A stretch of DNA of 64,000 bases from the NCBI GenBank assembly GCA_026398435.1, contig JAPLSW010000057.1, positions 17,715 through 81,714 of the forward strand, written 5' to 3'. The DNA is from Chlamydiota bacterium. GTDB taxonomy: Bacteria; Chlamydiota; Chlamydiia; Chlamydiales; Rhabdochlamydiaceae. The stretch's first letter is position 1. The number at the start of each line of letters is the position of its first letter. The position numbers and the translations under genes are program-made. Under the pieces are notes generated by a model. The model saw only the letters and a list, made by a program, of their open reading frames with translations. It was not told where the DNA came from and did not search any database. This document shows, piece after piece, positions 926 to 37,340 of this stretch.

Positions 926-2185
926 ATGATGCATATACTCAGAAAATCACTCTTTATAAGCCTAGCTTTAGTAAGCACTGCTCTGCATGCAGAAGAAGCA
1001 AGCTACGGTATAAGCGGTAACCCAGCAGCTGTTAATATTATGACGGGAACCGGGGAGCTTGGCAGGCTCATGCAAATCCCAGAAAAGTCTGGTGTCAGAC
1101 TCGGTGGAGTGTGGCTTGGCGATTATAACGCTCTTGCCTGCGGAGCAGACGGCCGGCGCCTTACAGGAAATAGCTCTTTCATCCTCGATCTATTTATCGA
1201 TTTCCAAAAAGCGTTTGGATGGAAAGGCGCTTCCTTCGGATCGGAGTTTCTTCAATACAATGGACAGCCCACGAATAAAGATGCAGGCGCCGTTCAAGGG
1301 TATAACAGCTTACCTGGATCTCCCCCTCTACACAGATCGGAACTATACCAACTTTGGCTGCGTCAAGAATTTCTTGATAACAAGTTAAGTATTCGCGCTG
1401 GAAAAACCGTGCCCAGCTACCACTTTAACAACGTATCAAAGCCTGTACCTACGACAAATCCTGCGGTTTCCATTCCCTCAGTTACAGGTCTTATTTATAC
1501 ACCTATTTTCGTGAACCCAACGTTAGATGGAGTCCTCGGTGGATATTACAACTCGGTATATGGAGGAGTAGCTACCATTGCTCCTGTTAAACAGGCGTAT
1601 GTTAATTTAGGTTTTTTTGATGGAAGACTTGCCAAAGGAGTTCAGACCGGACTTACTGGTCCAAAATTTAATGGCTATTACTTCTCTATCATGGAAGGGG
1701 GCTATGGCTGGACAGCATCTAAACCTGGCATTGCAGCTATTGGTGGATGGTACCAAAGTGGGAAGCTTGAATCTGGATCGCAAAAACAAACGGGCACAGG
1801 CGGCGTCTATGGATTCGCCTCGCAAGCTCTGTGGATCAAAGATACAAAGCTACCAAACCAAGGCAATGTTTCTGGATTTTTCCAGCTGGGTTGGAACAAT
1901 TCTAAAACACTGCGCATGAATCTATCGGCCGGTGCCGGTCTAACGGCTTTCTCTTTATTTTCTAAGCGTCCGAACGACTCATTCGGAATAGGTACTTCAT
2001 GGGCTCGTCTTAATCGCCATACTTTTACAAGACACTCTGAAATTATGTTCCAAGGGTATTACCAAACACAGGTGTACTCATCGATCTACTTTCAACCAGT
2101 ACTCAGCTATATCCCCTATCCGGGAGCTCATCCTACGAAATATAACGTAGTGGCCTTCACTGCAAGATTTATCGCTCTATTCTAG
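926..2185 (+). CDS. Outer-membrane porin, OprB/carbohydrate-selective-porin-like
   Basis: Signal peptide (LALVSTALHA/EE). The sequence is Gly/aromatic-rich with an alternating, beta-barrel-like pattern and a C-terminal Phe (...FIALF). The N-terminal region resembles OprB-family porins by eye. Confidence 0.5.
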   Translation: MMHILRKSLFISLALVSTALHAEEASYGISGNPAAVNIMTGTGELGRLMQIPEKSGVRLGGVWLGDYNALACGADGRRLTGNSSFILDLFIDFQKAFGWKGASFGSEFLQYNGQPTNKDAGAVQGYNSLPGSPPLHRSELYQLWLRQEFLDNKLSIRAGKTVPSYHFNNVSKPVPTTNPAVSIPSVTGLIYTPIFVNPTLDGVLGGYYNSVYGGVATIAPVKQAYVNLGFFDGRLAKGVQTGLTGPKFNGYYFSIMEGGYGWTASKPGIAAIGGWYQSGKLESGSQKQTGTGGVYGFASQALWIKDTKLPNQGNVSGFFQLGWNNSKTLRMNLSAGAGLTAFSLFSKRPNDSFGIGTSWARLNRHTFTRHSEIMFQGYYQTQVYSSIYFQPVLSYIPYPGAHPTKYNVVAFTARFIALF

Positions 2186-2267
2186 AGCGATAAATCTCTC
2201 TAAAAAAATTTATTGCATTTCATTTTCGCAAGCCTTACACATAGCTTTTATTCACAAGGAAGCAAAA

Positions 2268-3473
2268 ATGCTGAAAAAATTGAAAGTTTTCTCATTAATT
2301 ATCGCTACTTTGCAAGCATCAACACTTATGGCAGATGCTTACAAAGTTCCGGCCTCATCTGACACAGTCACACTTGGGCTTTTTACCTTAAGTAAAACCC
2401 CTGTCGTAAAAGTAAAATCAGGAGACACAGTTACCCTAGAAACATGGAATAGCTGCCTTCAAGTGATGCAATTTAATAAAACAACGCCTGCAGATATCGC
2501 CAAGTTTTATACGGCCAATGACATCCAAAAAAGACGGGGCATGCATTCAGTCACGGGTCCTGTGTACGTTGAAGGGGCTGAGCCTGGCGATGTGTTAGAG
2601 ATTCGCATTCTCGATATTAAACTCACAGACTGGGGATATAATTTCTTAAGCCCAACACAAGGGATCTTAGACGATTTCACAAAACCGAGAATCAAGTATT
2701 TTAAATTCGACAAGGTAAACAACACAACTGAGTTCACAAAAGGGGTCTGCTTCCAGCTAAAGCCCTTTCCAGGAGTACTTGCAGTAGCCCCTCCCCTAGA
2801 CTGGCCTCAAGGCTGGCCTGTAAGCATTGAGCCCAATACAGCTGGACAGCCAGTAGCTGGCGAGTTCAATTCAGTGCCACCAGGGCCTTTTGGAGGCAAT
2901 CTAGACCAGCCAGAGCTGCAAGCAGGCTCTGTCATCTTCTTGCCTGTATTCCAGAAAGGAGCTCTTGTCTGGACAGGAGATTCTCATGCTATGCAAAGCA
3001 ACGGAGAAATCGACATAACAGCCTTAGAGACCGCCTATGAAGGGATCACAATGCAATTTATTGTAAGAAAGGATTTAAGAGCTGAAGGGGTGCTTGACAA
3101 AACAAAAAGAAAGGGTGGGAACGCCTTTAGCTGGCCCATCATCGAAAATGCTACCCATTGGATGATTGTAGGACTCAATACCGATCTTCTTGAAGCGATG
3201 AAACTCGCCTCAAGAAACGCTATCGACTTCCTCGTACGCACTCAAGGGCTAACAGCAGAAGAGAGCTACCAATTCCTAAGTATGGTCGGTGACTTCGAGA
3301 TAGCAGAAGCTGTCAACGTCATCAAAAACGTAACAGTGCATATCCCCAAGTCCGTATTTAAAGGGACGGGTAAGCCTCTATCACTTTGCTCAGGTGGCAT
3401 CTTCCCACTACAAGTTCCAGACGCAAAAGATGATGCACCCTGCGTCCCACAAGTCGGAACAACAGTTGAATAA
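2268..3473 (+). CDS. Acetamidase/formamidase-family amidohydrolase with N-terminal signal peptide
   Basis: Motif block HSVTGPVYVEGAEPGDVLEIRILDI plus ...GGNLD...GDSHAMQSNGE is typical of the FmdA/AmdA family. The N-terminus MLKKLKVFSLIIATLQASTLMA looks like a signal peptide. Confidence 0.75.
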   Translation: MLKKLKVFSLIIATLQASTLMADAYKVPASSDTVTLGLFTLSKTPVVKVKSGDTVTLETWNSCLQVMQFNKTTPADIAKFYTANDIQKRRGMHSVTGPVYVEGAEPGDVLEIRILDIKLTDWGYNFLSPTQGILDDFTKPRIKYFKFDKVNNTTEFTKGVCFQLKPFPGVLAVAPPLDWPQGWPVSIEPNTAGQPVAGEFNSVPPGPFGGNLDQPELQAGSVIFLPVFQKGALVWTGDSHAMQSNGEIDITALETAYEGITMQFIVRKDLRAEGVLDKTKRKGGNAFSWPIIENATHWMIVGLNTDLLEAMKLASRNAIDFLVRTQGLTAEESYQFLSMVGDFEIAEAVNVIKNVTVHIPKSVFKGTGKPLSLCSGGIFPLQVPDAKDDAPCVPQVGTTVE

Positions 3474-3487
3474 CCAAAGGTAATAAC

Positions 3488-3889
3488 ATGAAAAAGATCC
3501 TGTTTTTTCTCGCAATGCTCATCCTTTCAGCAACTGGCTTTGCAGACAATGTGGTGATTAACAACCAGACTTCCCATCCTAGTAAAAAACTACAATCTCG
3601 GATGGCAGTGCAGTGGGCATCAACCGCTCAAGCAGTTGACGATGCTAATAAAGCGATGATGTGTGGAAAGCCGCTAGATATGAGTCAGGTACAAACAATC
3701 GATAAGTCAGGGAAGATTACTTTAACAATCCCTAAAGATGCTGAGCACCTAAGGCTTTTAGTATGGACAAAAAGCTCAGTAGAGCCGGATCTTGTCACTA
3801 ACTGGGTCGACATTGTACCGAATAAAACGTACATGATAAAAACAGATCAACTAGTCCCTGTTGTTCTCATGCCGGGCTCTGGTTGTTAA
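3488..3889 (+). CDS. Small secreted protein, unknown function
   Basis: Signal peptide MKKILFFLAMLILSATGFA/DN. The gene starts 15 nt after the amidase stop on the same strand and ends with ...GSGC. Confidence 0.5.
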   Translation: MKKILFFLAMLILSATGFADNVVINNQTSHPSKKLQSRMAVQWASTAQAVDDANKAMMCGKPLDMSQVQTIDKSGKITLTIPKDAEHLRLLVWTKSSVEPDLVTNWVDIVPNKTYMIKTDQLVPVVLMPGSGC

Positions 3890-3894
3890 ATTCA

Positions 3895-3929
3895 CTAGAA
3901 GAGTGCCTTTAGAAAAGGCACTCTTCTAG
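3895..3929. terminator. Bidirectional hairpin terminator
   Basis: A 16-bp perfect stem: CTAGAAGAGTGCCTTT / AAAGGCACTCTTCTAG with a 3-nt loop. It lies exactly between the convergent stops at 3889 (+) and 3932 (-). Confidence 0.7.
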
Positions 3930-3931
3930 GC

Positions 3932-5014
3932 CTAAAAAGTCGGAGGAGAAGATCTTGGGGATCTAAACCCTGGTATCGGGCTTGCTCCAACCTCAGGAGA
4001 GCCTCGTGGAGAGGGCGAGGTCATGTGCTTGGAGGGGCTACTCATAGAACGAGACCTTGGAGATCCCAACGCGAAGAAGTCCTTAGCAGAAAGATGGCTC
4101 GTTATAGAGTCTTCCCCGTTTTCTTCTACACACACATGAGTAAGGTCAATTCCATTTTTTCCAAGGAAAGCTACAGCATCATGAAGTTGATCTGAGGTCG
4201 GTTTGTAATGCCCACTTTTGCTGGAGAGTTCTATGATAGTCCCCTCAGCATTTGTTTTAATTTCACCAGCTCCAATCACAGGTCTTCCCCCATTAAAGCA
4301 AGAATGCTGAAATTTACTTAGCAACTAGGGACCGACATACATGATTTCATCGGAGAGAATCACATAGATTGCCGCATGAGATCTCTTATCGGATTCGAAA
4401 GCATCGGTTACTAGAGGTCTACCACTTTGAAATACCCTACCACCCTCAAAGGTAACTGCATAGGCAGCCCTTTCCGCAGGAGTGAGGTATTTAAGAGAAG
4501 AAGGATGTAATCTCGCAGGTTTTTGCATGAACCAATCCTCAAATGAGAGGGTCGTACTGCGGCTACTCTTCCAGGCTTCAAAAAAATCTTCCAGCTCAGC
4601 GCCACTCGGATGTGTGGGAAGGAGTGCCTCTTGCCAATATCTTTTATCCATCATTTTTCCAGAGGGTGCCATAGCATTTAATCCTTCAGCAAGATAAGAA
4701 GCTTTTTCCCAAGTTCTTTGGAGTTTGGGCCTAAAAGATCCAGGACCCGGTATGCTTCTAGAAAAAAGGCGAAATTCATGATTTTCTAGCAGTTCATTGT
4801 CCTTGCCATTAACCTCGTTATTCGCGGCTAGGCGGACAAGTTCGATGAATTTGTCAGAGGCCACGCAATCTGTTTTAGCGTCAGCTATACTCGTAATCGA
4901 ATAAGTACGACCAGCTACGCCGGCCCCTGAAACCTCAAGAGCGAATTTTACAGGAAGCTCAGCGATTTTTGTTCCGAAGGCTTCTTTATTGGAAATAAAC
5001 GAAATTGTTGTCAT
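3932..5014 (-). pseudogene. Effector-like protein split by an in-frame TAG (229 + 130 codons)
   Basis: ORFs 4325-5014 and 3932-4324 share one frame. They are separated only by TAG (4325-4327): ...EIMYVGP*LLSKFQHSCFNGGRPVIGAGE...SGHYKPT. The C-terminus is Ser/Pro-rich. Confidence 0.55.
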
Positions 5015-6548: not shown

Positions 6549-7481
6549 ATCTTCTAGAGATCGCTTCACTGATTGTCGAGCTGATACAATATAGAGCTTA
6601 TTATTGAGTTTGCGAACCAATCCGTACCATTTCCCAAATCTTGATATTTTTTTCCATCGACTTCAGCTATTAATGATTCCTTAACAAATGAGACTGCCCT
6701 ATAAAACCACCATCACAAAGACTATAAGTGAAAAAAAGATCGGCAAGAAAGCTTGTCAATTCAACTTTGGGTTTTGTCTGTGAAGATTTAAGAAATACAT
6801 AAGCTCTAGGAATTAGTTGTTTTTATCAATCTTATGTCGATTTCAAGCCAGTTTAACCTGCACACTTCTGGCTTGAAATTGACATTTGCACATTTGAAGC
6901 CCAAAATAGCAATAAAAAAGATACAGAACGTGCATGAAGCCTTTCCTTAAATGATAGAATGTCTACTTCAGACTCCAGCCAGATCTTTTTAATTTATCAA
7001 AGCTCAGTTTGGAAATTGCTCCGTAACAACGCATTGATTATCTTTATCCCATTTAACCGCTCCATAAGGAGAAAGTCTTACTTTCATACGGGAAGAGTTA
7101 CGTCTTCTATTCCAGTAATTAAGATTCGATTGCTGTGAAAGTACTTGAGAAAATGTCAGCTTTTGAAAAGCTAAGCTAATTCTGAACCTTTGATTTTAGC
7201 GTACTTATTGCTTCCTTCTACATAATCCCAATGCAAGGAAAGAGCTATCTCCCTGCTATACTCAAGATGAGACCAATATAGAGCATTCGAAGCCCTCACC
7301 CAAGTATATATTATAAAGAAGGATTATCAGATTCGAAGGCAAGGACTATTTCTTCTAAAGAAATAGATTGTTGCTGCTTTCCACTATAATAGAGAAAATA
7401 AGGAGGATTAGGTTCATAAAGCATTTTATTTTATCAAAATTAATTCAGCTGAATCTGTAATGATTAATTAATAAAACGATA

Positions 7482-7566
7482 CGGAAGAGGTAGGATTCGA
7501 ACCCACGGTCGGTTGCCCGACAACTGTTTTCAAGACAGCCGCGATCGGCCACTCTGCCACTCTTCC
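7482..7566 (-). tRNA. tRNA-Ser (anticodon UGA), long variable arm
   Basis: Reverse complement is GGAAGAGTGGCAGAGTGGCCGATCGCGGCTGTCTTGAAAACAG...GGGTTCGAATCCTACCTCTTCCG. The 7-bp acceptor stem pairs, the anticodon loop is CTTGAAA, and the T-loop is GGTTCGAATCC. No CCA is encoded. Confidence 0.9.
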
Positions 7567-7614
7567 GTAAAAGATATAAGCGGCAAATTATACAATTTGC
7601 CGAAATAAAATCAA

Positions 7615-8634
7615 TTAAAACTGCGATAAAAAGCGAAGATCATTTTCAGCGAACTGCCGAATATCCTTCATACCATAGCGAAGCATAGCTAAACGCTCTA
7701 TCCCAAGGCCCCAGGCAAAGCCGGAATACTCCTCAGGATCGATCCCACCGTTCTTAAGAACTTCAGGATGCACCATGCCGGCACCAAGAATTTCAAGCCA
7801 CCCGGTTTGCTTGCAAAGCCGGCAGCCGGATCCATTACATGATGTACACTCAATGTCTACCTCAAGTCCTGGTTCAACAAATGGAAAATAGCTGGGGCGG
7901 AAACGAGTTTGCACCTTCTTTTTAAATAGCTTATTCAGGAACTCTTCCATGGTAGCCATTAGGTCTGCAAAAGACACTCCCTTATCGACATAGAGCCCTT
8001 CTATCTGGTGGAAAAAAACGTGAGATCTTGCACTGATGGTTTCATTGCGATACACAGTGCCTGGAGCTATGATCCGGATCGGAGGGGTGTGACTTTGCAT
8101 AACGCGAAGCTGGGTATTGGATGTATGGGAGCGTAAAAGCAGATCTTTTTCAATATAGAAAGTATCTTGCATGTCTCTTGCCGGATGATCAGGGGGGAAG
8201 TTCAATCCTTCATAGTTGTAATAGTCTGAGTCCATGTCTGGCCCGTATTGAACAGAGAAACCCATCTCAGAGAAAATCCCAATAAGCTCATCCCGAATAA
8301 GATTTAAAGGGTGCTTGCGCCCTAGAAATCTTTTGCGACCAGGAAGTGTCACATCGATTTTCTCTTCTTCGATTCTTTTAGCAAGCTCCGTTTGCATAAG
8401 AGCTTCAATCATCTGAGAGCAAAGAGCGGATATCTCTTCTTTTAATTCGTTGATAACTTTTCCAGCAAGGGGTCTTTCTTCTGGAGTGCAGTCCCTTAGG
8501 GACATCATTAGCTCTTGAACAGGACCTTTTTTTCCAAGATAGCGAACTTGCAAAAGATCAGCCTCTTTTGCCGTTTGGAGTTTTTCAAGTTCGTCTTTAA
8601 ATTGCTTGCGTAGGAGTGTAATTTTTTCTTTCAC
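7615..8634 (-). CDS. pheS: Phenylalanine--tRNA ligase alpha subunit
   Basis: Class II motifs are present (...FRPSYFPFVEPG..., GAGMVHP..., GFAWGLGIERLAM). GTG start. Lies downstream of rplT. Confidence 0.95.
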   Translation of the reverse strand: MKEKITLLRKQFKDELEKLQTAKEADLLQVRYLGKKGPVQELMMSLRDCTPEERPLAGKVINELKEEISALCSQMIEALMQTELAKRIEEEKIDVTLPGRKRFLGRKHPLNLIRDELIGIFSEMGFSVQYGPDMDSDYYNYEGLNFPPDHPARDMQDTFYIEKDLLLRSHTSNTQLRVMQSHTPPIRIIAPGTVYRNETISARSHVFFHQIEGLYVDKGVSFADLMATMEEFLNKLFKKKVQTRFRPSYFPFVEPGLEVDIECTSCNGSGCRLCKQTGWLEILGAGMVHPEVLKNGGIDPEEYSGFAWGLGIERLAMLRYGMKDIRQFAENDLRFLSQF

Positions 8635-8652: not shown

Positions 8653-8691
8653 AAAAAAAAAGCCTATGTCTTAGCAGTGCAAGACATAGGC
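8653..8691 (-). terminator. Hairpin plus T-run between rplT and pheS (terminator/attenuator)
   Basis: On the minus strand: GCCTATGTCTT-gcactgct-AAGACATAGGC followed by T9. Confidence 0.6.
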
Positions 8692-8711: not shown

Positions 8712-9068
8712 TTAAGCTAAAGCTAGTTTTGCTGCGCCCGCTACTTCTGCAAAGCTATTTGGATCACGAATCGCCATTTCAGAGAGCATTTTGCGATTTA
8801 ACAAGCAACCTGCTAACTTAAGACCATTAATGAATTTGCTGTAGGAAATGCCGTTGATTTTTGCACCAACGCCGATTCTTACAGTCCAAAGTCTGCGAAA
8901 ATCTCTTTTCTTTTGTTTTCTGTGTACATAATTAAATGCCATTGCAGACATCACCGCGTCAGCTGTAAGACGTAGGTGGTTCTTACGATCGCCTACGAAG
9001 CCTTTAGCTTGTTTCAGCAATCTTTTTTTTCTGCGATGGGTAGCCACAGAATTCGTGACTCTTACCAT
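8712..9068 (-). CDS. rplT: 50S ribosomal protein L20
   Basis: MVRVTNSVATHRRKKRLLKQAKGF... is the canonical L20 N-terminus. Confidence 0.95.
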   Translation of the reverse strand: MVRVTNSVATHRRKKRLLKQAKGFVGDRKNHLRLTADAVMSAMAFNYVHRKQKKRDFRRLWTVRIGVGAKINGISYSKFINGLKLAGCLLNRKMLSEMAIRDPNSFAEVAGAAKLALA

Positions 9069-9090: not shown

Positions 9091-9288
9091 TTAAGCCACG
9101 CCCATGAGACGTGCGTACATTTTCGTTTGTCCATCATTAACAACGGATTGTTTTGACAAACGACGTTTACGATTTGATGACTTCTTAGTTAATTTATGCC
9201 TTCTTCCAGGATGAAACTGGAGAAGCTTGCCAGTACCAGTCACTTTAAACTTAGCTTTTACAGCCTTGCGTGTCTTCATTTTTGGCAT
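9091..9288 (-). CDS. rpmI: 50S ribosomal protein L35
   Basis: MPKMKTRKAVKAKFKVTGTGKL... is the canonical L35 sequence. Confidence 0.95.
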   Translation of the reverse strand: MPKMKTRKAVKAKFKVTGTGKLLQFHPGRRHKLTKKSSNRKRRLSKQSVVNDGQTKMYARLMGVA

Positions 9289-9313: not shown

Positions 9314-9835
9314 TTATTTTGGTGTTTCTGTCGCCGGCTTCTTCTTTCCACCTGGCGCTAGCACGGTTGACATGTTTCTACCCATCAGCCTTGCTTCGGA
9401 TTCGGGAGTTGCAATATCGGAAAGATCTTCACAAAATTTTTCCACCGCTTTTCTACCGATTTGAGGGTGCTGTAGCTCCCTTCCGCGAAAAACACACGTA
9501 ACTCTTACTTTATTACCCTTGATTATGAACTCACGGGCGTGCTTTGCCTTCACATGAACATCGTGTTCATCAGTTGTCGGCTTAATTTTAATTTCTTTAA
9601 CTTTTACCTGATGCTGAGACTTTTTGCTCTCTTTTTCTTTTTTAGTCACCTGGTAACGATACTTGCCGTAGTCAATAATCTTACATACGGGAGGCTCGGC
9701 ATTCGGTGCTATCTCAACTAAGTCCAGCCCAGACAGCTCAGCCTTACTAATTGCTTCAGGAGTAAGTAGAATACCTAACTGTTCTCCGTCTTTATCTATG
9801 ACTCGCACCTTAGCAGCGCGAATTTCTCTATTAAT
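9314..9835 (-). CDS. infC: Translation initiation factor IF-3 (non-canonical start)
   Basis: EPPVCKIIDYGKYRYQ and RGRELQHPQIG are IF3 motifs. The conserved INREIRAAK lies upstream of the GTG at 9808, in the same open frame. The only possible starts there are ATT (9835) or CTG (9847). Confidence 0.85.
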   Translation of the reverse strand: MNREIRAAKVRVIDKDGEQLGILLTPEAISKAELSGLDLVEIAPNAEPPVCKIIDYGKYRYQVTKKEKESKKSQHQVKVKEIKIKPTTDEHDVHVKAKHAREFIIKGNKVRVTCVFRGRELQHPQIGRKAVEKFCEDLSDIATPESEARLMGRNMSTVLAPGGKKKPATETPK

Positions 9836-9852
9836 TCTGCAGTTCAGAGGGA

Positions 9853-11448
9853 CTACTCCGGTTCTTTGTGTCTATTCAATCTCAGTATCAGTTCATCTAA
9901 AGTAAGAGTCTCTTCTTTCAATTGATTCAAGACCCGAACTCTTACTGTCGAACTACTTTCTTCTTTCTTATCTAAAATGAGGAGAAAGGGAATTTTTTCC
10001 AACAGTCTTTTATGAAAACTCTCTTTTTCTTTACTTTCAGAGATTTCCACTTTAACGCGAAAACCTTCCGATCTGATCTGCTTTTGCAGCTTTTCAGCAT
10101 AATCTTGCACATCTTTGCTAAGAGCTAAGATTCTCACTTGCTCTTCTGCTAGCAAAAAAGGAACACCTTCGTGCTTTTCCAGCAGTAAGGCAGCTATTCT
10201 TTCTCTCGAGCCGAGTGTCGATCTAATAATAACAGCTTCACTTCTGTTTGCTTCCGAGAAGGAAACTTGCATAAATCCTGTAGACCAATCACGCCCAAGT
10301 GAATCACCTACCCTAAAATCAACTTTCACACCCTTAAAAGAGCTATGAGTATGCTGAATACAGGTAATCCCCTCTTCTTGCAAAGCCCTTTTAAGGACAT
10401 CTGCGCTAATTTTTTCACCATTTGTAAGCGCAGAAGACTTTACTTTTCTGACACTTAAAATGATTTTATACTCAAAGCCCAGGATTTTAAGCATTTTGCT
10501 TATGAAATGCAAGGAAGAAATGCACTCCTCAAAAAGTTGCTTTTCAGTGCAAATAATATATTGAAGATCAACCACCGATCGGACCGTTTTTAATAGACCG
10601 CAAGAAAAATCTGTAAGCTCTTTATCCCAAAGGACACACTCTTCTGACACCCTATTCAAAGAAGCCTTTGAAACTAAAGAGGCTCTCTCTAAGAGAAGAT
10701 CATGATATAGCAAGTCATTTTCTTCATCTTCTGCACACTCGATTTCTTCTGGACTTGGCATTTTGATAAAAGAAAAACTTGCTTTTTCCAAATGATCTCT
10801 AAGACTTAAAGATAAGGCCTGAAGAAAACCCTCTCCCTTTGGATGCCAAAGCCAAAGGCTTCCTTCATTATTTACTCTGCTAAAAAGATTCCAATCTTTA
10901 CCAATGGATGGGTGGAGCCTCTTTACAAGACCCTCTTCTTCTTTCAAAAATTTCTTAAGGCTTTGCTTATCATAATCGGCAGCACCCCAGATCCTTACTA
11001 CATCTTTTTTTAGTCTTTTACCGATTTTTTCAAAAGTTTTAAGCTTTACCGCGCCTACATAACTAGTATCTGGACAAGCTAGCTCATCCTCTGAAAAATC
11101 TATATAAGATCCCATTTGGACAATTGAGAGTAAAGTATCAGAAGATGCAGCCGCATCTTCTGCGCGAAGAGACTCCTTATGAAAGGCAAGCATCTCTCCC
11201 GCACTAAAGGGGACCATTTCCTTTATAGAAAATTCTTGTTTTTCTTTGATAAAACGAGAAATTCCCTCTTCTAAAAGAACAAGGAAAGAAGATTGGAATT
11301 CAAAAGGAAAAACAAAGTCGTAATAGAAGCCAAGGGGCGTGATTCCACCACCCGCTAGTAGCGCATCAGGAAAGTTTCTTTTAGCAGAGGCTGCAAGAAG
11401 GATCCTGGCGGCTTTTCTTAAATCTGATAATTCTAATGATATATTCAT
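9853..11448 (-). CDS. Threonyl-tRNA-synthetase-like protein, apparently catalytically degenerate
   Basis: The ORF is collinear with the ThrRS editing, catalytic and anticodon-binding domains (GFYYDF; WLWHPKG; TLGSRERIAALLLE; anticodon-domain block RVKVEISESKE...IPFLLILDKKE). It has no TGS domain, and the HxxxH, HRNE and QDDAH motifs are not recognisable. Confidence 0.7.
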   Translation of the reverse strand: MNISLELSDLRKAARILLAASAKRNFPDALLAGGGITPLGFYYDFVFPFEFQSSFLVLLEEGISRFIKEKQEFSIKEMVPFSAGEMLAFHKESLRAEDAAASSDTLLSIVQMGSYIDFSEDELACPDTSYVGAVKLKTFEKIGKRLKKDVVRIWGAADYDKQSLKKFLKEEEGLVKRLHPSIGKDWNLFSRVNNEGSLWLWHPKGEGFLQALSLSLRDHLEKASFSFIKMPSPEEIECAEDEENDLLYHDLLLERASLVSKASLNRVSEECVLWDKELTDFSCGLLKTVRSVVDLQYIICTEKQLFEECISSLHFISKMLKILGFEYKIILSVRKVKSSALTNGEKISADVLKRALQEEGITCIQHTHSSFKGVKVDFRVGDSLGRDWSTGFMQVSFSEANRSEAVIIRSTLGSRERIAALLLEKHEGVPFLLAEEQVRILALSKDVQDYAEKLQKQIRSEGFRVKVEISESKEKESFHKRLLEKIPFLLILDKKEESSSTVRVRVLNQLKEETLTLDELILRLNRHKEPE

Positions 11449-11455
11449 AAAATCT

Positions 11456-11529
11456 TGGGATATAGCTGACTCGAACAGCTGACCTCCACGATGTCAACGT
11501 GGCGCTCTAACCAACTGAGCTAATATCCC
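11456..11529 (-). tRNA. tRNA-Val (anticodon GAC)
   Basis: Reverse complement is GGGATATTAGCTCAGTTGGTTAGAGCGCCACGTTGACATCGTGGAGGTCAGCTGTTCGAGTCAGCTATATCCCA. A cloverleaf can be drawn, and the anticodon loop is TTGACAT. Confidence 0.9.
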
Positions 11530-11669
11530 ATAGGTGGTTAAATTTCGACCCAAAGAATAGTAAGAACTTTCATTCTCGGCAAGGCAAATAGTTCCTAAAA
11601 TATTTTATAGCATGCAGGAAAAGACCCACCTAGTTATTCTCTCTGCTTAAACTTCACTCTAGGCTCTGT

Positions 11670-31679: not shown

Positions 31680-34600
31680 ATGGAAAAAGATCAGATCGTT
31701 TTAAAAAAAGTACGCGTTCATAACATAAAAAATGAAAGCCTGACCCTCGATAAAAACCAACTGATCGTATTTACCGGAGTCTCTGGCTCGGGCAAATCTT
31801 CCCTTGCCTTCGACACAATCTATGTAGAGGGTCAAAGAAGATACATAGAATCCCTTTCCACCTACGCAAGAAGGCATATGGGAGATCTTCCCAAACCCGA
31901 TGCCGACCTCATTGAGGGGATCTCTCCGACAATTGCCATCGAGCAAAAAACCACAGGAAAAAACCCCCGAAGTACCGTTGGGACGATGACAGGGCTCTAC
32001 GACTTCTTAAGAGTTCTTTTCGCAAGGGTGGGCATTGCCCACTGTCCCGTAAGCGGAGATCCAGTAAAGCCCCAAAGTACAAAACAAATCGCTGAGAAAA
32101 TATTCTCCCTTGCTCAGAGCGATAGGATCATCCTTTTAAGCCCCTTTGCTGAAGGAAAAAAAGGGGAGTTTAAAGAGGATTTTGCAGATCTTATCCGTAA
32201 GGGATATACAAGAGTAAGACTGGATGGCAAGATCATCGACCTTACAGAGGAAATTGCCCTCGATGGGAAAGTGGCTCACGACATCGATGTCGTAATCGAT
32301 AGAATAACGGCCGATGAAGAAAATAAATCTCGTCTTACCGAAGGGATCACAGCTGCCCTTGAGTTTGGTAAAGGTATTGTGAAGGTGCTGCATGTAGAAT
32401 CTAAGGAAGAAACCCTCTACTCTCAGCATGCCTTTTGCAAGGCCTCAGGACTATCGTATGGTCCCTTAGAGCCCTCTGATTTTTCTTTTAACCACCCTCT
32501 CGGAATGTGTCCTGCCTGTCAGGGCCTTGGAATCACCCAAGAGTTCGATGTAGAAAGAGTAATAAATCCTCTTCTTAGCATCTCTGAAGATTGCTGCCAG
32601 GTAGCAAGCTCCTATAAGACGGTACGCTATGGAAACATCTATGACAACTTAGCAAAGATCTATAATTTCAGTGTTACAACACCCTGGAATGAGCTTCCTG
32701 AAAAAGGAAAAAATGCGTTTCTTTACGGTATTGATAGCAAATGGACAAAGATGCTCTTTGTCCATCCCATCAAAAAAACAAGGTGGCATGACTATATCCA
32801 CTGGAAAGGTGTTCTCAATGAAGCTAAAGACAGATTCCAATCAGCACAAAGTGATCTCTATAGAAATAAAATGAAAGAGCTCATGCATGAGGCTCTATGC
32901 CCTGCATGCAAGGGAGCGAAAATCCGTCCCTATCCAGCCGCGACAACCATCGGTGGCAAAAGGATCTATGAGCTCACAAATCTACCGATTGGTGAGCTTT
33001 TAGCATTTGTTGAGTCTCTGTCTTTTGATCCCCTAGAAAAACTTATCGCTGATGAAGTGGTTAAAGAAATTAGAGAAAGGCTTTATTTCTTAAACCAAGT
33101 AGGCCTAAGCTACCTTTCCTTAGAGAGGACAGCACCTACCCTCTCTGGTGGAGAAGGGCAAAGGGTCCGCCTTGCCTCACAGATTGGCTCGGGCCTTGTC
33201 GGCTCTACCTATATCCTCGATGAACCCTCGATAGGTTTGCACCCAAGAGACAACCAGAAGCTTTTACTTACCCTCAAAAATCTTCGAGACAAAGGCAATA
33301 CTGTCATCGTCGTCGAACATGATGAAGAAACTATTGAATGTGCCGATACTGTTGTCGATGTCGGTCCCCTTGCCGGACAGCTGGGAGGAAAAATCATTAT
33401 ACAAGGGACAGTAAAAGAGTTGATGGAGTGTCCCGATTCTTTGACAGGTGGCTACCTATCAGGCAGACTCTCTATACCTATCCCTAAAAAAAGAAAAAAA
33501 CCCTCAAAGAAAAAGATCAAGATCCTAGGTGCGAATCACCACAACTTAAAAAATATCGATGTATCATTTCCTCTGGGTGTTTTTACAGCGGTTACTGGTG
33601 TTTCAGGATCGGGAAAATCATCGCTCGTAATAGACATCCTCTATCCTGCTTTAACCAATCACCTGCACCATGGGAAGATGTCTGTTGGCGCCCATAAAAA
33701 AATAGAGGGCCTTAGTAGTGTCGATAAAATCATTGCTATCGATCAATCTCCCATTGGTCGCACTCCGAGATCTAATCCCGCCACCTACATAAAGCTGTTC
33801 GATGAAATTCGCGATCTATTCTGCCAGCTTCCTGAAAGCAAAGCCTCCGGCTTTGATGCCGGACGGTTCAGCTTTAATGTCAAAGAGGGATCGTGTCCAT
33901 TCTGTGGCGGTATGGGGATGTGCAAGATCGACATGGACTTTATGGAAGATGAGTGGGTAAGTTGCGAGCACTGCCACGGGCAAAGATTCGATTGCAAAAC
34001 TCTCTCTATTCTGTTTAAAGGAAAAAACATTCACGATGTTTTAGAGCTTACCATTGCAGAAGCGGCCTCCTTTTTTTCCTCTATCCCTAAGATCACTGCA
34101 AAACTGGACCTGCTTTTAAAAGTTGGCCTTGACTACCTAAAGCTCGGCCAACCATCACCCACCCTATCGGGAGGTGAGGCCCAAAGAATTAAACTGGCCA
34201 AAGAGCTCTCTCGACCCTCCACCGGAGACACCTTTTACATACTCGATGAACCGACAACTGGCCTTCACTTCCATGACTGTAAAAAGCTCATCGAAGTGCT
34301 CCACTCTCTTGTTGAAAAAGGGAACACTGTGCTCGTCATCGAGCACAATATGGACCTTATTAAAACAGCAGACTGGATAATCGATATAGGCCCGGAAGCG
34401 GGGATGTACGGAGGGACTATTGTCTCTGAAGGAACACCCGAGAAAATTGCTGAAGAAGACTCTCCTACAGGAAGATCCCTAAAGACTGTGTTACATAAAC
34501 GAACATTTCATCCCTCACCGCAAAAAAACTCCTATCCAAAAGTTGAATTTATCGATGTGAAAGGGGCCTGCCAAAACAACCTTAAAAATCTCGATGTGAA

Positions 34601-37340
34601 AATTCCAAGAGATAAGATCACTGTATGTACGGGACCTTCTGGATCCGGTAAAAGCTCATTTGCCTTTGAGACGATCTATGCAGAAGGGCAACGCAGATAC
34701 ATAGAGTCACTTTCTCACTACGCCCGGCAATTTGTAAAGCAGATGCCCAAACCTAAAGTAGAAAGCATAGAGGGGCTGTCTGCCGCTATTGCTATCGAAC
34801 AAAAAAGCCACGCCGGCAACCCCCGAAGCACCATCGGCACGATGACAGAGACGTATGACTACCTGAGAGTGCTCTTTGCCCATCTAGGCACTGCCTACTG
34901 CCCAGAAACAGGGGAACTTATACAAGCCATCAGCAAAGAGTATGTAGTCAATAGACTGCTAGAGCTTCCTGAAAAAACTAAGCTCCATATCATGACTCCC
35001 TATACCCTTGGTAAACAAGAGACCTTTGAGCTAGCTAAAGAAAAACTGCTCCAGCAAGGTTTTTTACGCATACGGCTTAATGGCACTTTTTATGAGCTCG
35101 ATGAAGAAATCTCCTTCGATAAAAAAAGAAGCCAGGAGCTCTTACTTGTGATCGATAGGCTCATCGTATCACAAGATATCCGCAAAAGGCTCTTTGAAGC
35201 CCTCGAGCTTGCAGATAAAATCTCAAAAGGAACCATCATCGTAGCGGCAGATGGTAGCGACATGCTCTTCAACCTCTCCTTTGCAGTAGAGAGCACAGGT
35301 AAATCCTACCCCCCGATTACTCCCCACACCTTTTCTTTTAATACAGAGCAAGGGATGTGTTTAGACTGTTTAGGTTTGGGCTTCCAATATGGGGCGAATT
35401 TTGGAAGTAGCAAAGAGTTAATGGAGCTATCGCCCCTTGATCTTATCTCTTATCTTTGGAAAGAACATGCGACTAAAGAGTCCCTTCAGCTTTTCTTAAA
35501 AATTTTACAAGAGGAAGAGATTGACCCGGATGCCCCCATAGAATCTATGAATGCCTCCCAATTGCAATTTTTCTTCCATGGCGATACCAAAGAAAATTCT
35601 CCGAAGAAAAAAAAGGTCTATTTCCGTTGGAAAGGGATTAATAACACCCTCATCAACTACACAAAATCCCCTCATGGGCAGCTAAGGCCTATCCTTACTT
35701 CGATGATGGAGCAAACTACCTGCCTATCCTGCCAGGGAGCGCGACTCAATCCCCTTGCAAGAAACGTCAAAATCGGGAAAACAACCCTTCCCGATCTTTG
35801 CAAAATGTCTATTGAAAAATCCTCTGTTTTTGTAGACGCGCTAAAGATCTCCTCCCATCTCTTTTTACAAGAGACCCTAGACCAACTTAAAAATCGCCTC
35901 CGTTTCTTACTAGCTATTGGCCTTGGGTATTTAAGCCTTGAAAGAACAGCCCCAACACTCAGTGGTGGAGAAACTCAAAGAATTAGATTAAGCAGGCAGC
36001 TAGGCAGTGGACTTACCGGATGCATTTACGTGCTCGATGAGCCAACAATTGGACTCCATCCCCACAACAATGACCTGCTTAATAAGGCGCTAAAATCCCT
36101 TTGTGATCTGGGCAATACCCTGATCCTTGTAGAACACGATCCCCTAACGATTAAAATTGCCGATCATATCATCGACTTCGGTCCCGAAGCTGGGGTCCAC
36201 GGTGGGATGATCACAGCAGAGGGAAGCCTGCAGCAAATACTAAAAGACCCAAACTCCCTTACCGGAGCGTATCTTAGTGGAAGAAAAAAGATTCCCCTTC
36301 CAAGTTCTAGAAGAAGCTCTGATACCTACTTAACGGTCTTTAATGCCTCAATTCATAACCTGAAAGGATTCGATGTCGATATCCCCTGCCACGCAATCAC
36401 CTGCATCACGGGAGTGTCAGGGGCCGGCAAGTCGACCCTTCTGCTCGACATCATCTGTCCAGCGGTTGTTAAGACCCTTTTATCCAGAAGCAAAGAAGAT
36501 AAGATGCAAATCGGTGCAAGCATCGTAAAAGGGATTTCCAACTTCGACAAGTGTCTAGTTCTCGATCAAAACCCGATCGGTCAGACAAGTAGAGCCGATG
36601 TAAGCACCTATGTAGATGTTCTTACCCCCTTGCGCTACCTCTATGCCTCAGTGCCAGAAGCCAAAACAAGAGGGCTCCAACCGAAACATTTTAGCTTTAA
36701 CCACCGAAAAGGGATGTGTACCGGATGTTTTGGTCTTGGGACCAAAAACATCAGCTTGCAATTCCTCCCTCCCGTAAAGGTTCCTTGCGAGTCCTGCAAA
36801 GGATACCGCCTAAATCCTTTGAGCCTGCAGGTGTATTTTAAAGGCAAGCACCTAGGAGAGGTACTGCAAATGACAGTAGAAGAGGCCCTCTACTTTTTCG
36901 ATGCGATTCCTAAAATCCGAAGGATATTAGACACCCTGGTCTCTGTTGGTCTTGGCTATGTAAAGCTCGGCCAAGAGATATCCACACTTTCTGGTGGTGA
37001 AACGCAAAGGATACGCCTAAGTAGAGAACTTGCAAAACGATCAACCGGTAGAACGCTCTACCTTCTTGATGAGCCCTCCATCGGGCTCCATAGTGAAGAC
37101 ATCGCAAAGCTTGCCAAGATCTTCCAAGAGCTTGCTGACAAGGGCAACACCCTTATCATGGTAGAGCATAATCTCGATCTAATGGCAGCCTCCGATAAGG
37201 TGATCGACATAGGCCAGGATGCAGGAGAAAAAGGAGGAGAGCTTATAGCCCAAGGAACACCGGAAGAGGTGGCACTAAATAAGCGCTCTTATACAGCCAA
37301 ATACCTCAAGGAGCATCTGGAGATGTATAAGTTAAGCTAA
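31680..37340 (+). CDS. uvrA: Excinuclease ABC subunit A, tandem double-length fusion (two complete UvrA modules)
   Basis: Four Walker A sites (GVSGSGKSS x2, GPSGSGKSS, GVSGAGKST) and four LSGGE.QR signatures. Both halves carry the Zn-finger Cys pairs. The second module starts near nt 34540. Confidence 0.95.
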   Translation: MEKDQIVLKKVRVHNIKNESLTLDKNQLIVFTGVSGSGKSSLAFDTIYVEGQRRYIESLSTYARRHMGDLPKPDADLIEGISPTIAIEQKTTGKNPRSTVGTMTGLYDFLRVLFARVGIAHCPVSGDPVKPQSTKQIAEKIFSLAQSDRIILLSPFAEGKKGEFKEDFADLIRKGYTRVRLDGKIIDLTEEIALDGKVAHDIDVVIDRITADEENKSRLTEGITAALEFGKGIVKVLHVESKEETLYSQHAFCKASGLSYGPLEPSDFSFNHPLGMCPACQGLGITQEFDVERVINPLLSISEDCCQVASSYKTVRYGNIYDNLAKIYNFSVTTPWNELPEKGKNAFLYGIDSKWTKMLFVHPIKKTRWHDYIHWKGVLNEAKDRFQSAQSDLYRNKMKELMHEALCPACKGAKIRPYPAATTIGGKRIYELTNLPIGELLAFVESLSFDPLEKLIADEVVKEIRERLYFLNQVGLSYLSLERTAPTLSGGEGQRVRLASQIGSGLVGSTYILDEPSIGLHPRDNQKLLLTLKNLRDKGNTVIVVEHDEETIECADTVVDVGPLAGQLGGKIIIQGTVKELMECPDSLTGGYLSGRLSIPIPKKRKKPSKKKIKILGANHHNLKNIDVSFPLGVFTAVTGVSGSGKSSLVIDILYPALTNHLHHGKMSVGAHKKIEGLSSVDKIIAIDQSPIGRTPRSNPATYIKLFDEIRDLFCQLPESKASGFDAGRFSFNVKEGSCPFCGGMGMCKIDMDFMEDEWVSCEHCHGQRFDCKTLSILFKGKNIHDVLELTIAEAASFFSSIPKITAKLDLLLKVGLDYLKLGQPSPTLSGGEAQRIKLAKELSRPSTGDTFYILDEPTTGLHFHDCKKLIEVLHSLVEKGNTVLVIEHNMDLIKTADWIIDIGPEAGMYGGTIVSEGTPEKIAEEDSPTGRSLKTVLHKRTFHPSPQKNSYPKVEFIDVKGACQNNLKNLDVKIPRDKITVCTGPSGSGKSSFAFETIYAEGQRRYIESLSHYARQFVKQMPKPKVESIEGLSAAIAIEQKSHAGNPRSTIGTMTETYDYLRVLFAHLGTAYCPETGELIQAISKEYVVNRLLELPEKTKLHIMTPYTLGKQETFELAKEKLLQQGFLRIRLNGTFYELDEEISFDKKRSQELLLVIDRLIVSQDIRKRLFEALELADKISKGTIIVAADGSDMLFNLSFAVESTGKSYPPITPHTFSFNTEQGMCLDCLGLGFQYGANFGSSKELMELSPLDLISYLWKEHATKESLQLFLKILQEEEIDPDAPIESMNASQLQFFFHGDTKENSPKKKKVYFRWKGINNTLINYTKSPHGQLRPILTSMMEQTTCLSCQGARLNPLARNVKIGKTTLPDLCKMSIEKSSVFVDALKISSHLFLQETLDQLKNRLRFLLAIGLGYLSLERTAPTLSGGETQRIRLSRQLGSGLTGCIYVLDEPTIGLHPHNNDLLNKALKSLCDLGNTLILVEHDPLTIKIADHIIDFGPEAGVHGGMITAEGSLQQILKDPNSLTGAYLSGRKKIPLPSSRRSSDTYLTVFNASIHNLKGFDVDIPCHAITCITGVSGAGKSTLLLDIICPAVVKTLLSRSKEDKMQIGASIVKGISNFDKCLVLDQNPIGQTSRADVSTYVDVLTPLRYLYASVPEAKTRGLQPKHFSFNHRKGMCTGCFGLGTKNISLQFLPPVKVPCESCKGYRLNPLSLQVYFKGKHLGEVLQMTVEEALYFFDAIPKIRRILDTLVSVGLGYVKLGQEISTLSGGETQRIRLSRELAKRSTGRTLYLLDEPSIGLHSEDIAKLAKIFQELADKGNTLIMVEHNLDLMAASDKVIDIGQDAGEKGGELIAQGTPEEVALNKRSYTAKYLKEHLEMYKLS

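Follow-up and report, generated by a model that had tools for sequence, protein, structure and literature searches.

The threonyl-tRNA synthetase (ThrRS) of Escherichia coli represses its own mRNA through an operator that mimics the anticodon arm of tRNA-Thr (1KOG), a regulation for which the anticodon-binding domain of the enzyme is needed and catalysis is not. A tRNA can also be directly joined to a message: in mitochondria, tRNA punctuation yields leaderless mRNAs, and in the E. coli tRNA-tufB co-transcript the two are separated by a spacer of about 100 nt, with a Shine-Dalgarno (SD) sequence present. In a 2022 review of duplicated synthetases, the ThrRS paralogs Anabaena ThrRS T2 and animal ThrRS-L (TARSL2) are both active, and no inactive bacterial ThrRS paralog is mentioned (PMC9437257). 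Inactive relatives of enzymes, well studied in the case of kinases, are few and little documented among the bacterial aminoacyl-tRNA synthetases (aaRS). Here we analyze an open reading frame (ORF) of 531 amino acids (aa) from a Chlamydiota bacterium of the Rhabdochlamydiaceae, in a stretch of 64,000 nt (hereafter the window; contig JAPLSW010000057.1, positions 17,715 to 81,714, of assembly GCA_026398435.1). Its product, which we call pseudo-ThrRS, resembles a ThrRS devoid of catalytic residues, and its gene directly follows a tRNA-Val gene. The elements concerned are listed below with their window coordinates, the ratio of nonsynonymous to synonymous substitution rates being abbreviated dN/dS.

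9853..11448, minus strand: pseudo-ThrRS coding sequence (11448..9853, ATG start, 531 aa plus stop), predicted ThrRS fold without catalytic residues; dN/dS 0.14 against the 90%-identical relative L043
10894..11448, minus strand: N2 (editing-type) domain, residues 1-185, aligning to E. coli ThrRS ~62-68 to 250
10165..10893, minus strand: class II core, residues 186-428, with no zinc site, motif-2 Arg, or His309, and with motif 3 GSRER present
9856..10164, minus strand: anticodon-binding domain, residues 429-531 (Pfam HGTP_anticodon, 55.8 bits)
11449..11455, minus strand: spacer AGATTTT, 7 nt, from the tRNA discriminator base (11456) to the ATG, without SD sequence
11456..11529, minus strand: tRNA-Val (anticodon GAC), no encoded CCA (Rfam RF00005, 68.6 bits; ARAGORN 11455..11530)

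The first-pass annotation of this DNA had described the ORF as collinear with ThrRS from the N2 to the anticodon-binding domain, which both sequence and structure comparisons bear out. ThrRS sequences of the PDB match the protein with an E-value of about 1e-30, the two matching stretches leaving out residues 232-284, and the motifs by which the resemblance had been recognized are all present (GFYYDF at 40-45, WLWHPKG at 199-205, and TLGSRERIAALLLE at 411-424). The AlphaFold model, for which an alignment of 63 family sequences served as input, has a pLDDT of 90.8 and a pTM of 0.87, its weak spots being residues 231-250 (pLDDT about 66), which replace E. coli positions ~297-345, and residues 471-480. 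The top PDB matches returned by Foldseek for this model are all ThrRS (6vu9, 1qf6, and 1nyq, with TMq values of 0.57-0.75). From the model, we are confident that pseudo-ThrRS would adopt a ThrRS fold comprising N2, class II core, and anticodon-binding domain. Profiles of the functional enzyme, on the other hand, recognize it poorly: it scores 164.3 bits against the NCBIfam thrS profile TIGR00418, less than half of the cut-off (383.65), and among Pfam domains HGTP_anticodon alone lies above its cut-off, tRNA-synt_2b reaching 14.4 bits versus 29.3. The TGS domain, already noted as lacking, is absent from both the Pfam domains and the AlphaFold model.

Functional residues were mapped with a MAFFT alignment of the family with E. 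coli ThrRS (from NC_000913), the numbering of which is used below. The editing HxxxH is replaced by KAARI, as read initially by eye; at the editing site, the window protein displays the changes H73 to K, H77 to I, K156 to R, C182 to S, and H186 to A/L, and these residues are kept in only 0-8% of the family (n = 63), except C182 (51%). GFYYDF and R217 of the N2 domain are kept in the window protein. All three zinc ligands are substituted (C334 to L, H385 to Y, H511 to I), and across the 63 members Cys334 and His511 are never found, while His385 is kept in 33%. In motif 2, R363 is changed to D and His309 is deleted; QDDAH reads VDLQY, and the threonine/ATP pocket shows Y462 to K, Q479 to S, and T482 to F. 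The losses proposed for the zinc and catalytic blocks are thus recovered by alignment, with one correction, as the zinc cysteine is Cys334, whose segment is largely deleted in the window protein, and not the Cys of "CHRNE". The picture of a dismantled active site also holds for motif 2 and the zinc ligands and fails for motif 3, since Ser517 and Arg520 are intact (GSRER, residues 413-417) and kept in 86% of the family.

Other positions of the core are also conserved: D472, R476, W478, E357, and E527 are kept in 95-100% of the family, and so are elements of the motif-1 region (W..P.G in 90-100%, Pro296 in 84%). Of 27 functional residues checked, however, canonical ThrRS keep all, whereas each member of the pseudo family has lost nearly all. 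On a broader scale, canonical sequences are invariant to at least 97% in 119 columns, of which 70 are kept in less than 50% of the pseudo family (187 canonical versus 63 pseudo sequences). A helix of the core, C..E.ISSL.FI..I.KILGFE (residues 300-326), is conserved in the pseudo family only. Positions 363, 365, 383, 385, 462, 465, 479, 482, 484, and 511 each show at least three common residues within the family, and such variation of the pocket among members speaks against the presence of a new, conserved site for a small molecule. Judged from its residues, pseudo-ThrRS is predicted to be unable to activate threonine, to charge tRNA, or to edit, while keeping the shape of ThrRS.

A sequence search recovered more than 60 clusters of similar proteins (490-590 aa), named "hypothetical protein", [quoted passage not shown] (Candidatus Protochlamydia), or, by automatic annotation, "threonyl-tRNA synthetase", a label that may lead astray both metabolic reconstruction and marker-gene phylogeny when chlamydial genomes are assembled from metagenomes. 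A profile search over 1.84 billion representatives extended the family to at least 150 clusters at 50% identity; the best 150 were examined, and all are of the inactive type. Out of 10 catalytic or editing residues, the 137 representatives that were new to this search retain 0-3, and QDDAH occurs in none of them.

These proteins are nevertheless constrained. Among 10 independent pairs, the dN/dS ratio takes values of 0.13-0.26, and another four pairs, of which three include versions without the anticodon-binding domain, give 0.18-0.20; between the window and L043, it is 0.13 for N2, 0.13 for the core, and 0.20 for the anticodon-binding domain. The corresponding values for IF3 and PheS are 0.06 and 0.02. 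About 35 independent genomes, at 24-90% identity, carry the gene as an uninterrupted reading frame. Pseudo-ThrRS is kept by purifying selection and is not decaying. The annotation had viewed the gene as a pseudo-synthetase maintained as an intact frame, and with 14 constrained pairs and a large, monophyletic, uniformly inactive family, this view is substantiated; simple decay by frameshift in relatives, which would have spoken for a different history, is not seen as a rule.

Pseudo-ThrRS have a single origin and are widely spread in environmental Chlamydiota. In a neighbor-joining tree, which is crude (no support values, long branches), the pseudo family is monophyletic on long branches and the canonical chlamydial ThrRS form a separate monophyletic group that is not its sister. 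Moreover, the pseudo-family profile scores canonical chlamydial ThrRS at a median of 311 bits, equal to its score for E. coli ThrRS. Equal scores and non-sister groups together point to an old split between pseudo and canonical ThrRS, and for the same reasons a recent duplication of chlamydial thrS is not supported. The gene may be an ancestral copy or may have been acquired by transfer. For the Chlamydiaceae, C. trachomatis CT832, considered as a possible ortholog, received no support; a 2026 paper names CT_832 nusB. Many records that carry the gene are titled Verrucomicrobia, Verrucomicrobiae, or Acidobacteriota (loci L006, L008, L011, L013-L017, L024, L025, L029, L030, L036, and L041), and L003 is titled "Chlamydia trachomatis" yet is a lake metagenome-assembled genome (MAG); given the chlamydial operon that they contain, these labels look wrong.

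If pseudo-ThrRS does not charge tRNA-Thr, another protein has to. With a Chlamydia ThrRS query, 91% identical to C. crocodili/psittaci entries, we found dozens of canonical ThrRS clusters that group with named chlamydial enzymes and are about 58-61% identical to Chlamydia ThrRS; the few named clusters are assigned to Chlamydiales or Chlamydiae bacterium. Full motifs are present in all of them and the TGS domain in nearly all. On contig L047, such a gene (2001..3935, product about 58% identical to Chlamydia ThrRS) does not lie beside infC and is flanked by genes of the GDP-mannose dehydratase/epimerase type and of the ParA/CbiA ATPase type; a quick look at the 100 nt upstream revealed no obvious operator or T-box-like feature. 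The 64-kb window contains no canonical thrS. Because pseudo-ThrRS appears biochemically unable to charge tRNA-Thr and canonical ThrRS is ubiquitous in the group, we infer that a canonical thrS coexists with it elsewhere in the source genome.

The gene lies in the ancestral thrS slot, as proposed earlier: in the window, infC-rpmI-rplT-pheS follow it in the order of E. coli thrS-infC-rpmI-rplT-pheS (NC_000913). We scanned one genome per species, that is 40 loci, 39 of which include upstream DNA. All 40 show a chlamydial gene order, most being labeled Chlamydiota and a few MAGs Verrucomicrobia or Acidobacteria. The order pseudo-thrS, infC, rpmI, rplT, pheS is found in every locus scanned, and tRNA-Val(GAC) is directly upstream in 39/39. 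The tRNA-Val junction and the downstream order are also present in further contigs, L042, L043, L044, and L046 (Candidatus Protochlamydia). tRNA-Ser(TGA) follows pheS in the scanned loci and is present in L042 and L043; it was not found in the Protochlamydia locus L046. The arrangement tRNA-Val(GAC)/pseudo-ThrRS/infC/rpmI/rplT/pheS/tRNA-Ser is thereby documented in about 45 chlamydial loci. In the scanned loci, the neighboring genes are 57-93% identical to those of the window and pseudo-ThrRS 24-56%. The same arrangement in every related locus examined, added to the E-value of the ThrRS match, is far beyond chance.

The junction itself is conserved. The first reading of the sequence had placed only 7 nt, with no SD sequence, between the end of tRNA-Val(GAC) at 11456 and the ATG at 11448, and relatives share this trait: the spacer between discriminator base and start codon measures 0-19 nt (median 7, about 40 loci), with one outlying value of 29 nt where the start codon is uncertain. 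It contains neither a purine-rich ribosome-binding site nor a promoter, the start codon following almost immediately on the tRNA gene. In the window, GGAG/GAGG-type sites precede rpmI, rplT, pheS, and infC, and pseudo-ThrRS has none. The conserved N-terminal helix starts about 8 residues past the ATG and the frame upstream consists of tRNA sequence only, so that no alternative start codon is possible. L022 has ATA in the place of the usual ATG.

Upstream of the tRNA only, about 21 of 41 related loci display, at the score threshold applied, a promoter-like motif (TTGccg, 17-18 nt, TATxxT) whose distance to the tRNA is 23-28 nt; the window site scores 8/12, below the threshold of the scan tool, and promoter-like matches within the ORF are at chance level. 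From this layout, we infer that the simplest transcription unit would be promoter, tRNA-Val, pseudo-thrS, infC, rpmI, and rplT. A tRNA gene without encoded CCA is of the RNase Z substrate type. This holds for the window, L017/L023/L038, and most loci, while a 3' CCA (…CCCACCA…) is encoded in L022, L028, and L032; since it is encoded in some lineages only, lineages may differ in the expected 3'-processing route and, with it, in the 5' end of the mRNA that follows. We found nothing relevant in the literature searched on bacterial leaderless mRNAs formed next to a tRNA.

The remaining elements of the conserved block in the window are the following.

11554..11582, minus strand: promoter-like TTGCCG-17 nt-TATTCT, ending 24 nt upstream of tRNA-Val (consensus match only)
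9314..9847, minus strand: infC (IF3), with a probable CUG start at 9847..9845 (the ORF tool lists GTG 9808)
9288..9091, minus strand: rpmI, order kept in all loci (Pfam label taken from relatives)
9068..8712, minus strand: rplT, order kept in all loci (Pfam label taken from relatives)
8662..8691, minus strand: terminator-like hairpin between rplT and pheS, 12-bp stem with 5 G-C pairs, T9 (consensus match only)
8634..7615, minus strand: pheS, conserved in related loci
7566..7482, minus strand: tRNA-Ser(TGA) (Rfam; ARAGORN 7567..7481), which ends the conserved block

The start of infC deserves comment. The conserved N-terminus of IF3, LNCRINREIR, lies upstream of GTG 9808, where the window offers no ATG, GTG, or TTG. 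Across about 45 loci, the codon at the start position is CTG or TTG, with a single CTA, and GGAG is found 8-9 nt upstream; four loci have instead a TTG two codons before the Ile. Taken together with the window sequence, this suggests that infC probably starts at CUG 9847..9845. The pseudo-ThrRS gene supplies the GGAG site (9859..9856) with its final codons, and its stop is separated by 5 nt from the CUG downstream. Such a start recalls the AUU start used in the autoregulation of E. coli IF3. Owing to the strong terminator-like hairpin, pheS may, as in E. coli, form a unit that is separate or attenuated.

An Rfam scan of the window detected two tRNAs, tRNA-Val and tRNA-Ser, and nothing else. 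Its gene content is chlamydial (TLC ATP/ADP transporter, Pkn-type kinase, double-length UvrA, and ValRS). The UvrA protein (31680..37340, plus strand) has 1886 aa, its UvrA modules being duplicated; a protein of 758 aa (40824..43100, plus strand), which contains DUF4116 and ankyrin repeats, looks like an effector; valS (46649..49480, plus strand), the ValRS gene, and the tRNA-Val gene are about 35 kb apart. In the 90%-identical relatives L044 (64..1705) and L043 (4435..7821), an IS200/IS605-type pair (Y1 transposase and OrfB/TnpB) stands just upstream of tRNA-Val, and a block of NUDIX, zeta-toxin-like, and Bro-N genes comes after tRNA-Ser. The conserved block seems to have an insertion hot spot at either end.

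What may such a protein be kept for? The anticodon-binding domain provides the most specific clue. Glu600 is kept in 100% and Arg609 in 94% of the 63 members, and in 131/132 and 123/132, respectively, of a wider set of representatives with the domain; in the window protein they correspond to Glu496 and Arg505. By their spacing, they align with Glu425/Arg434 of the yeast mitochondrial ThrRS (MST1), which read G35/U36, bases that the E. coli enzyme coordinates "in a similar manner" (PMC4756836). Other canonical invariants of the domain are changed (K581, R583, to His/Tyr, and R611), and its median pI is 8.0 versus 6.2-6.8 in canonical enzymes. This pattern indicates that recognition of a tRNA-Thr-type (G35-U36) anticodon loop would have been retained, and near-invariance of the pair fits the tRNA-binding or regulatory role suggested by the first-pass annotation. 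tRNA-Val(GAC) was considered as a ligand and is unlikely, as the kept readers fit G35-U36 while tRNA-Val has A35-C36, and as lineages without the anticodon-binding domain keep the junction too. We also rejected an operator of the E. coli thrS type near pseudo-ThrRS, there being no tRNA-Thr-anticodon-like hairpin in the stretch scanned around the gene and a leader of only 7 nt.

On these grounds we propose, giving it an even chance, that pseudo-ThrRS is a non-catalytic RNA-binding or regulatory protein, which in most lineages would read tRNA-Thr-like anticodon loops and would be made from a co-transcript with tRNA-Val. A promoter upstream of tRNA-Val would drive the whole unit, with pseudo-thrS as first cistron followed by infC, rpmI, and rplT. 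With a spacer of 0-19 nt, the folded tRNA would lie inside the space needed by the 30S subunit, so that prior excision of the tRNA is probably required; the message would be translatable only after this step and would by then be leaderless or nearly so. The Glu600/Arg609 pair would then read the tRNA-Thr-type anticodon loop (G35-U36) in most lineages, while the always-kept N2 and core would supply dimerization and the main functional surface. A more elaborate version is that tRNA punctuation, a leaderless pseudo-ThrRS binding tRNA-Thr-type RNA, and a CUG-started infC form a Chlamydiota-specific circuit that responds to IF3 and tRNA: the leaderless start would be of the kind that IF3 disfavors, and would feed into a CUG-initiated infC that would be IF3-sensitive as well. 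As a whole, we hold this circuit to be quite unlikely.

Several observations weigh against the proposal. The whole anticodon-binding domain is lost in L027, L029, L032, L035, L037, L039, L040, and L042, and, judging by protein length, in P0006, P0007, P0009, P0010, P0055, P0067, and P0079. These domain-less versions (420-455 aa) end just past motif 3, with infC within about 20-230 nt and no remnant of the domain, and dN/dS is 0.19 in the L042/L003 pair. Since the domain was lost repeatedly and the shortened versions are still constrained, anticodon reading is not a universal core function, and since it is dispensable in several lineages, the indispensable part of the protein is N2 plus core. 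The kept Glu600/Arg609 could in principle be structural instead of RNA-reading. No YUNGUR loops with stems of at least 4 bp were found in a scan that began 300 nt before the ORF and ended 700 nt beyond its stop; hairpins with such loops were likewise not found upstream of the canonical thrS in L047, the one canonical chlamydial thrS scanned. The variable spacer length means that a strictly 5'-terminal AUG is not conserved. Lastly, among the sequences retrieved, no contig or assembly was found to be shared by canonical and pseudo thrS.

The repeated loss of the anticodon-binding domain is consistent with the main rival explanation, a pseudoenzyme partner whose core would dimerize with canonical ThrRS or with itself and so modulate activity, stability, or tRNA-Thr channeling, its own RNA reading being secondary. 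N2 and core, where ThrRS dimerizes, are present in every lineage, the motif-1-region elements W..P.G and Pro296 are kept, and the pseudo-only helix 300-326 could be a new protein interface; a comparable function has been proposed for animal ThrRS-L, which would recycle tRNA-Thr for ThrRS (PMC9437257). However, pseudo-ThrRS is not specifically close to the canonical chlamydial enzyme (311 bits, non-sister groups), which implies that the interfaces have long diverged, and the strong conservation of E600/R609 would be left unexplained, so that we see in this partner a real but minor possibility. The fixed position of the gene raises another question, namely whether the protein, or its mere translation, serves the expression or assembly of IF3, L35, and L20, either by translational coupling into the CUG-initiated infC or by binding IF3 or ribosomal components. 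The linkage to infC-rpmI-rplT in every locus and the overlap of the last codons with the infC GGAG site, with a stop 5 nt before the probable CUG, are in favor of this role. E. coli IF3 discriminates against SD-less, near-leaderless starts, the very kind that pseudo-ThrRS would have. Coupling alone, though, needs neither a conserved fold nor a dN/dS of 0.13-0.2 over 430-590 codons, and the linkage may simply be inherited from an ancestral thrS-infC operon; we consider a role of this sort unlikely.

Two further explanations concern the fate of the active site. The old site may have been re-tooled for a new substrate and reaction, as in AsnA, EpmA/PoxA, and the amino acid:carrier-protein ligases, and aaRS cores are indeed often co-opted (PMC9437257); the 86% conservation of Ser517/Arg520 and the near-invariant D472, R476, W478, E357, and E527 would be accounted for. 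But the residues lining the pocket differ among members, the motif-2 loop region is shortened and modeled with low confidence, and most family-specific invariants, as judged from the alignment, fall in helix 300-326 and in the anticodon-binding domain rather than in the pocket, all of which makes a new enzyme improbable. Conversely, the gene could be a decaying remnant of an ancestral thrS that is intact here in appearance only, given that its catalytic residues are lost and that it evolves faster than its neighbors (24-56% versus 57-93% identity). In L030, L034, and L041, the ORF is frameshifted or shortened, the anticodon-binding domain being in another reading frame; two of these three loci, however, come from assemblies in which neighboring essential genes are broken too. 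A dN/dS of 0.13-0.26 in every pair tested, intact frames in about 35 genomes, at least 150 clusters, and a confident predicted fold render decay highly improbable. The non-catalytic RNA-binding or regulatory protein thus remains the reading that we retain.

No description of a chlamydial ThrRS paralog or of a pseudo-ThrRS family was found in the literature, and a Protochlamydia proteomics supplement gave no pseudo-ThrRS matches; as far as we found in the literature searched, both the family and its tRNA junction are undescribed. Throughout its radiation, an entire bacterial lineage has retained, at the head of the IF3/L35/L20 operon, a ThrRS that is full-length and catalytically dead. This makes it a clean system for studying the roles that a scaffold may take on after catalysis, such as tRNA sensing, regulation of the active enzyme, or control of translation-factor synthesis, and the tRNA/start-codon junction offers a testable bacterial case of an mRNA 5' end set by tRNA processing.

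Compared with E. coli ThrS (1QF6; TIGR00418), pseudo-ThrRS has the same fold, domain order, and slot upstream of infC-rpmI-rplT-pheS, together with the motif 3 Arg and Glu600/Arg609; it differs by the absence of TGS, zinc ligands, Arg363, His309, the Thr/ATP pocket, and editing residues, and it evolves 2-3 times faster than bacterial ThrRS. With the E. coli ThrRS operator, the locus shares a tRNA-shaped RNA next to the start codon of a gene in the thrS slot, but the upstream RNA is here a real tRNA-Val (A35, C36), and there is no leader or SD sequence to compete for. As in tRNA punctuation and tRNA-tufB, a tRNA gene abuts an ORF and leaves no room for a promoter or SD sequence, so that excision of the tRNA would set the 5' end of the mRNA; in contrast with mitochondrial punctuation, this is a single conserved bacterial junction, with a spacer of 0-19 nt that is not strictly 0. 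Finally, HisZ, the HisRS-like regulatory subunit, and SLIMP, an inactive SerRS-like protein, are, as predicted for pseudo-ThrRS, inactive in aminoacylation and kept for another role. HisZ lacks an anticodon-binding domain and has HisG as partner, whereas pseudo-ThrRS possesses this domain in most lineages. With an aaRS fold, lost catalytic residues, and purifying selection across many lineages, pseudo-ThrRS displays the pattern of an inactive aaRS paralog.

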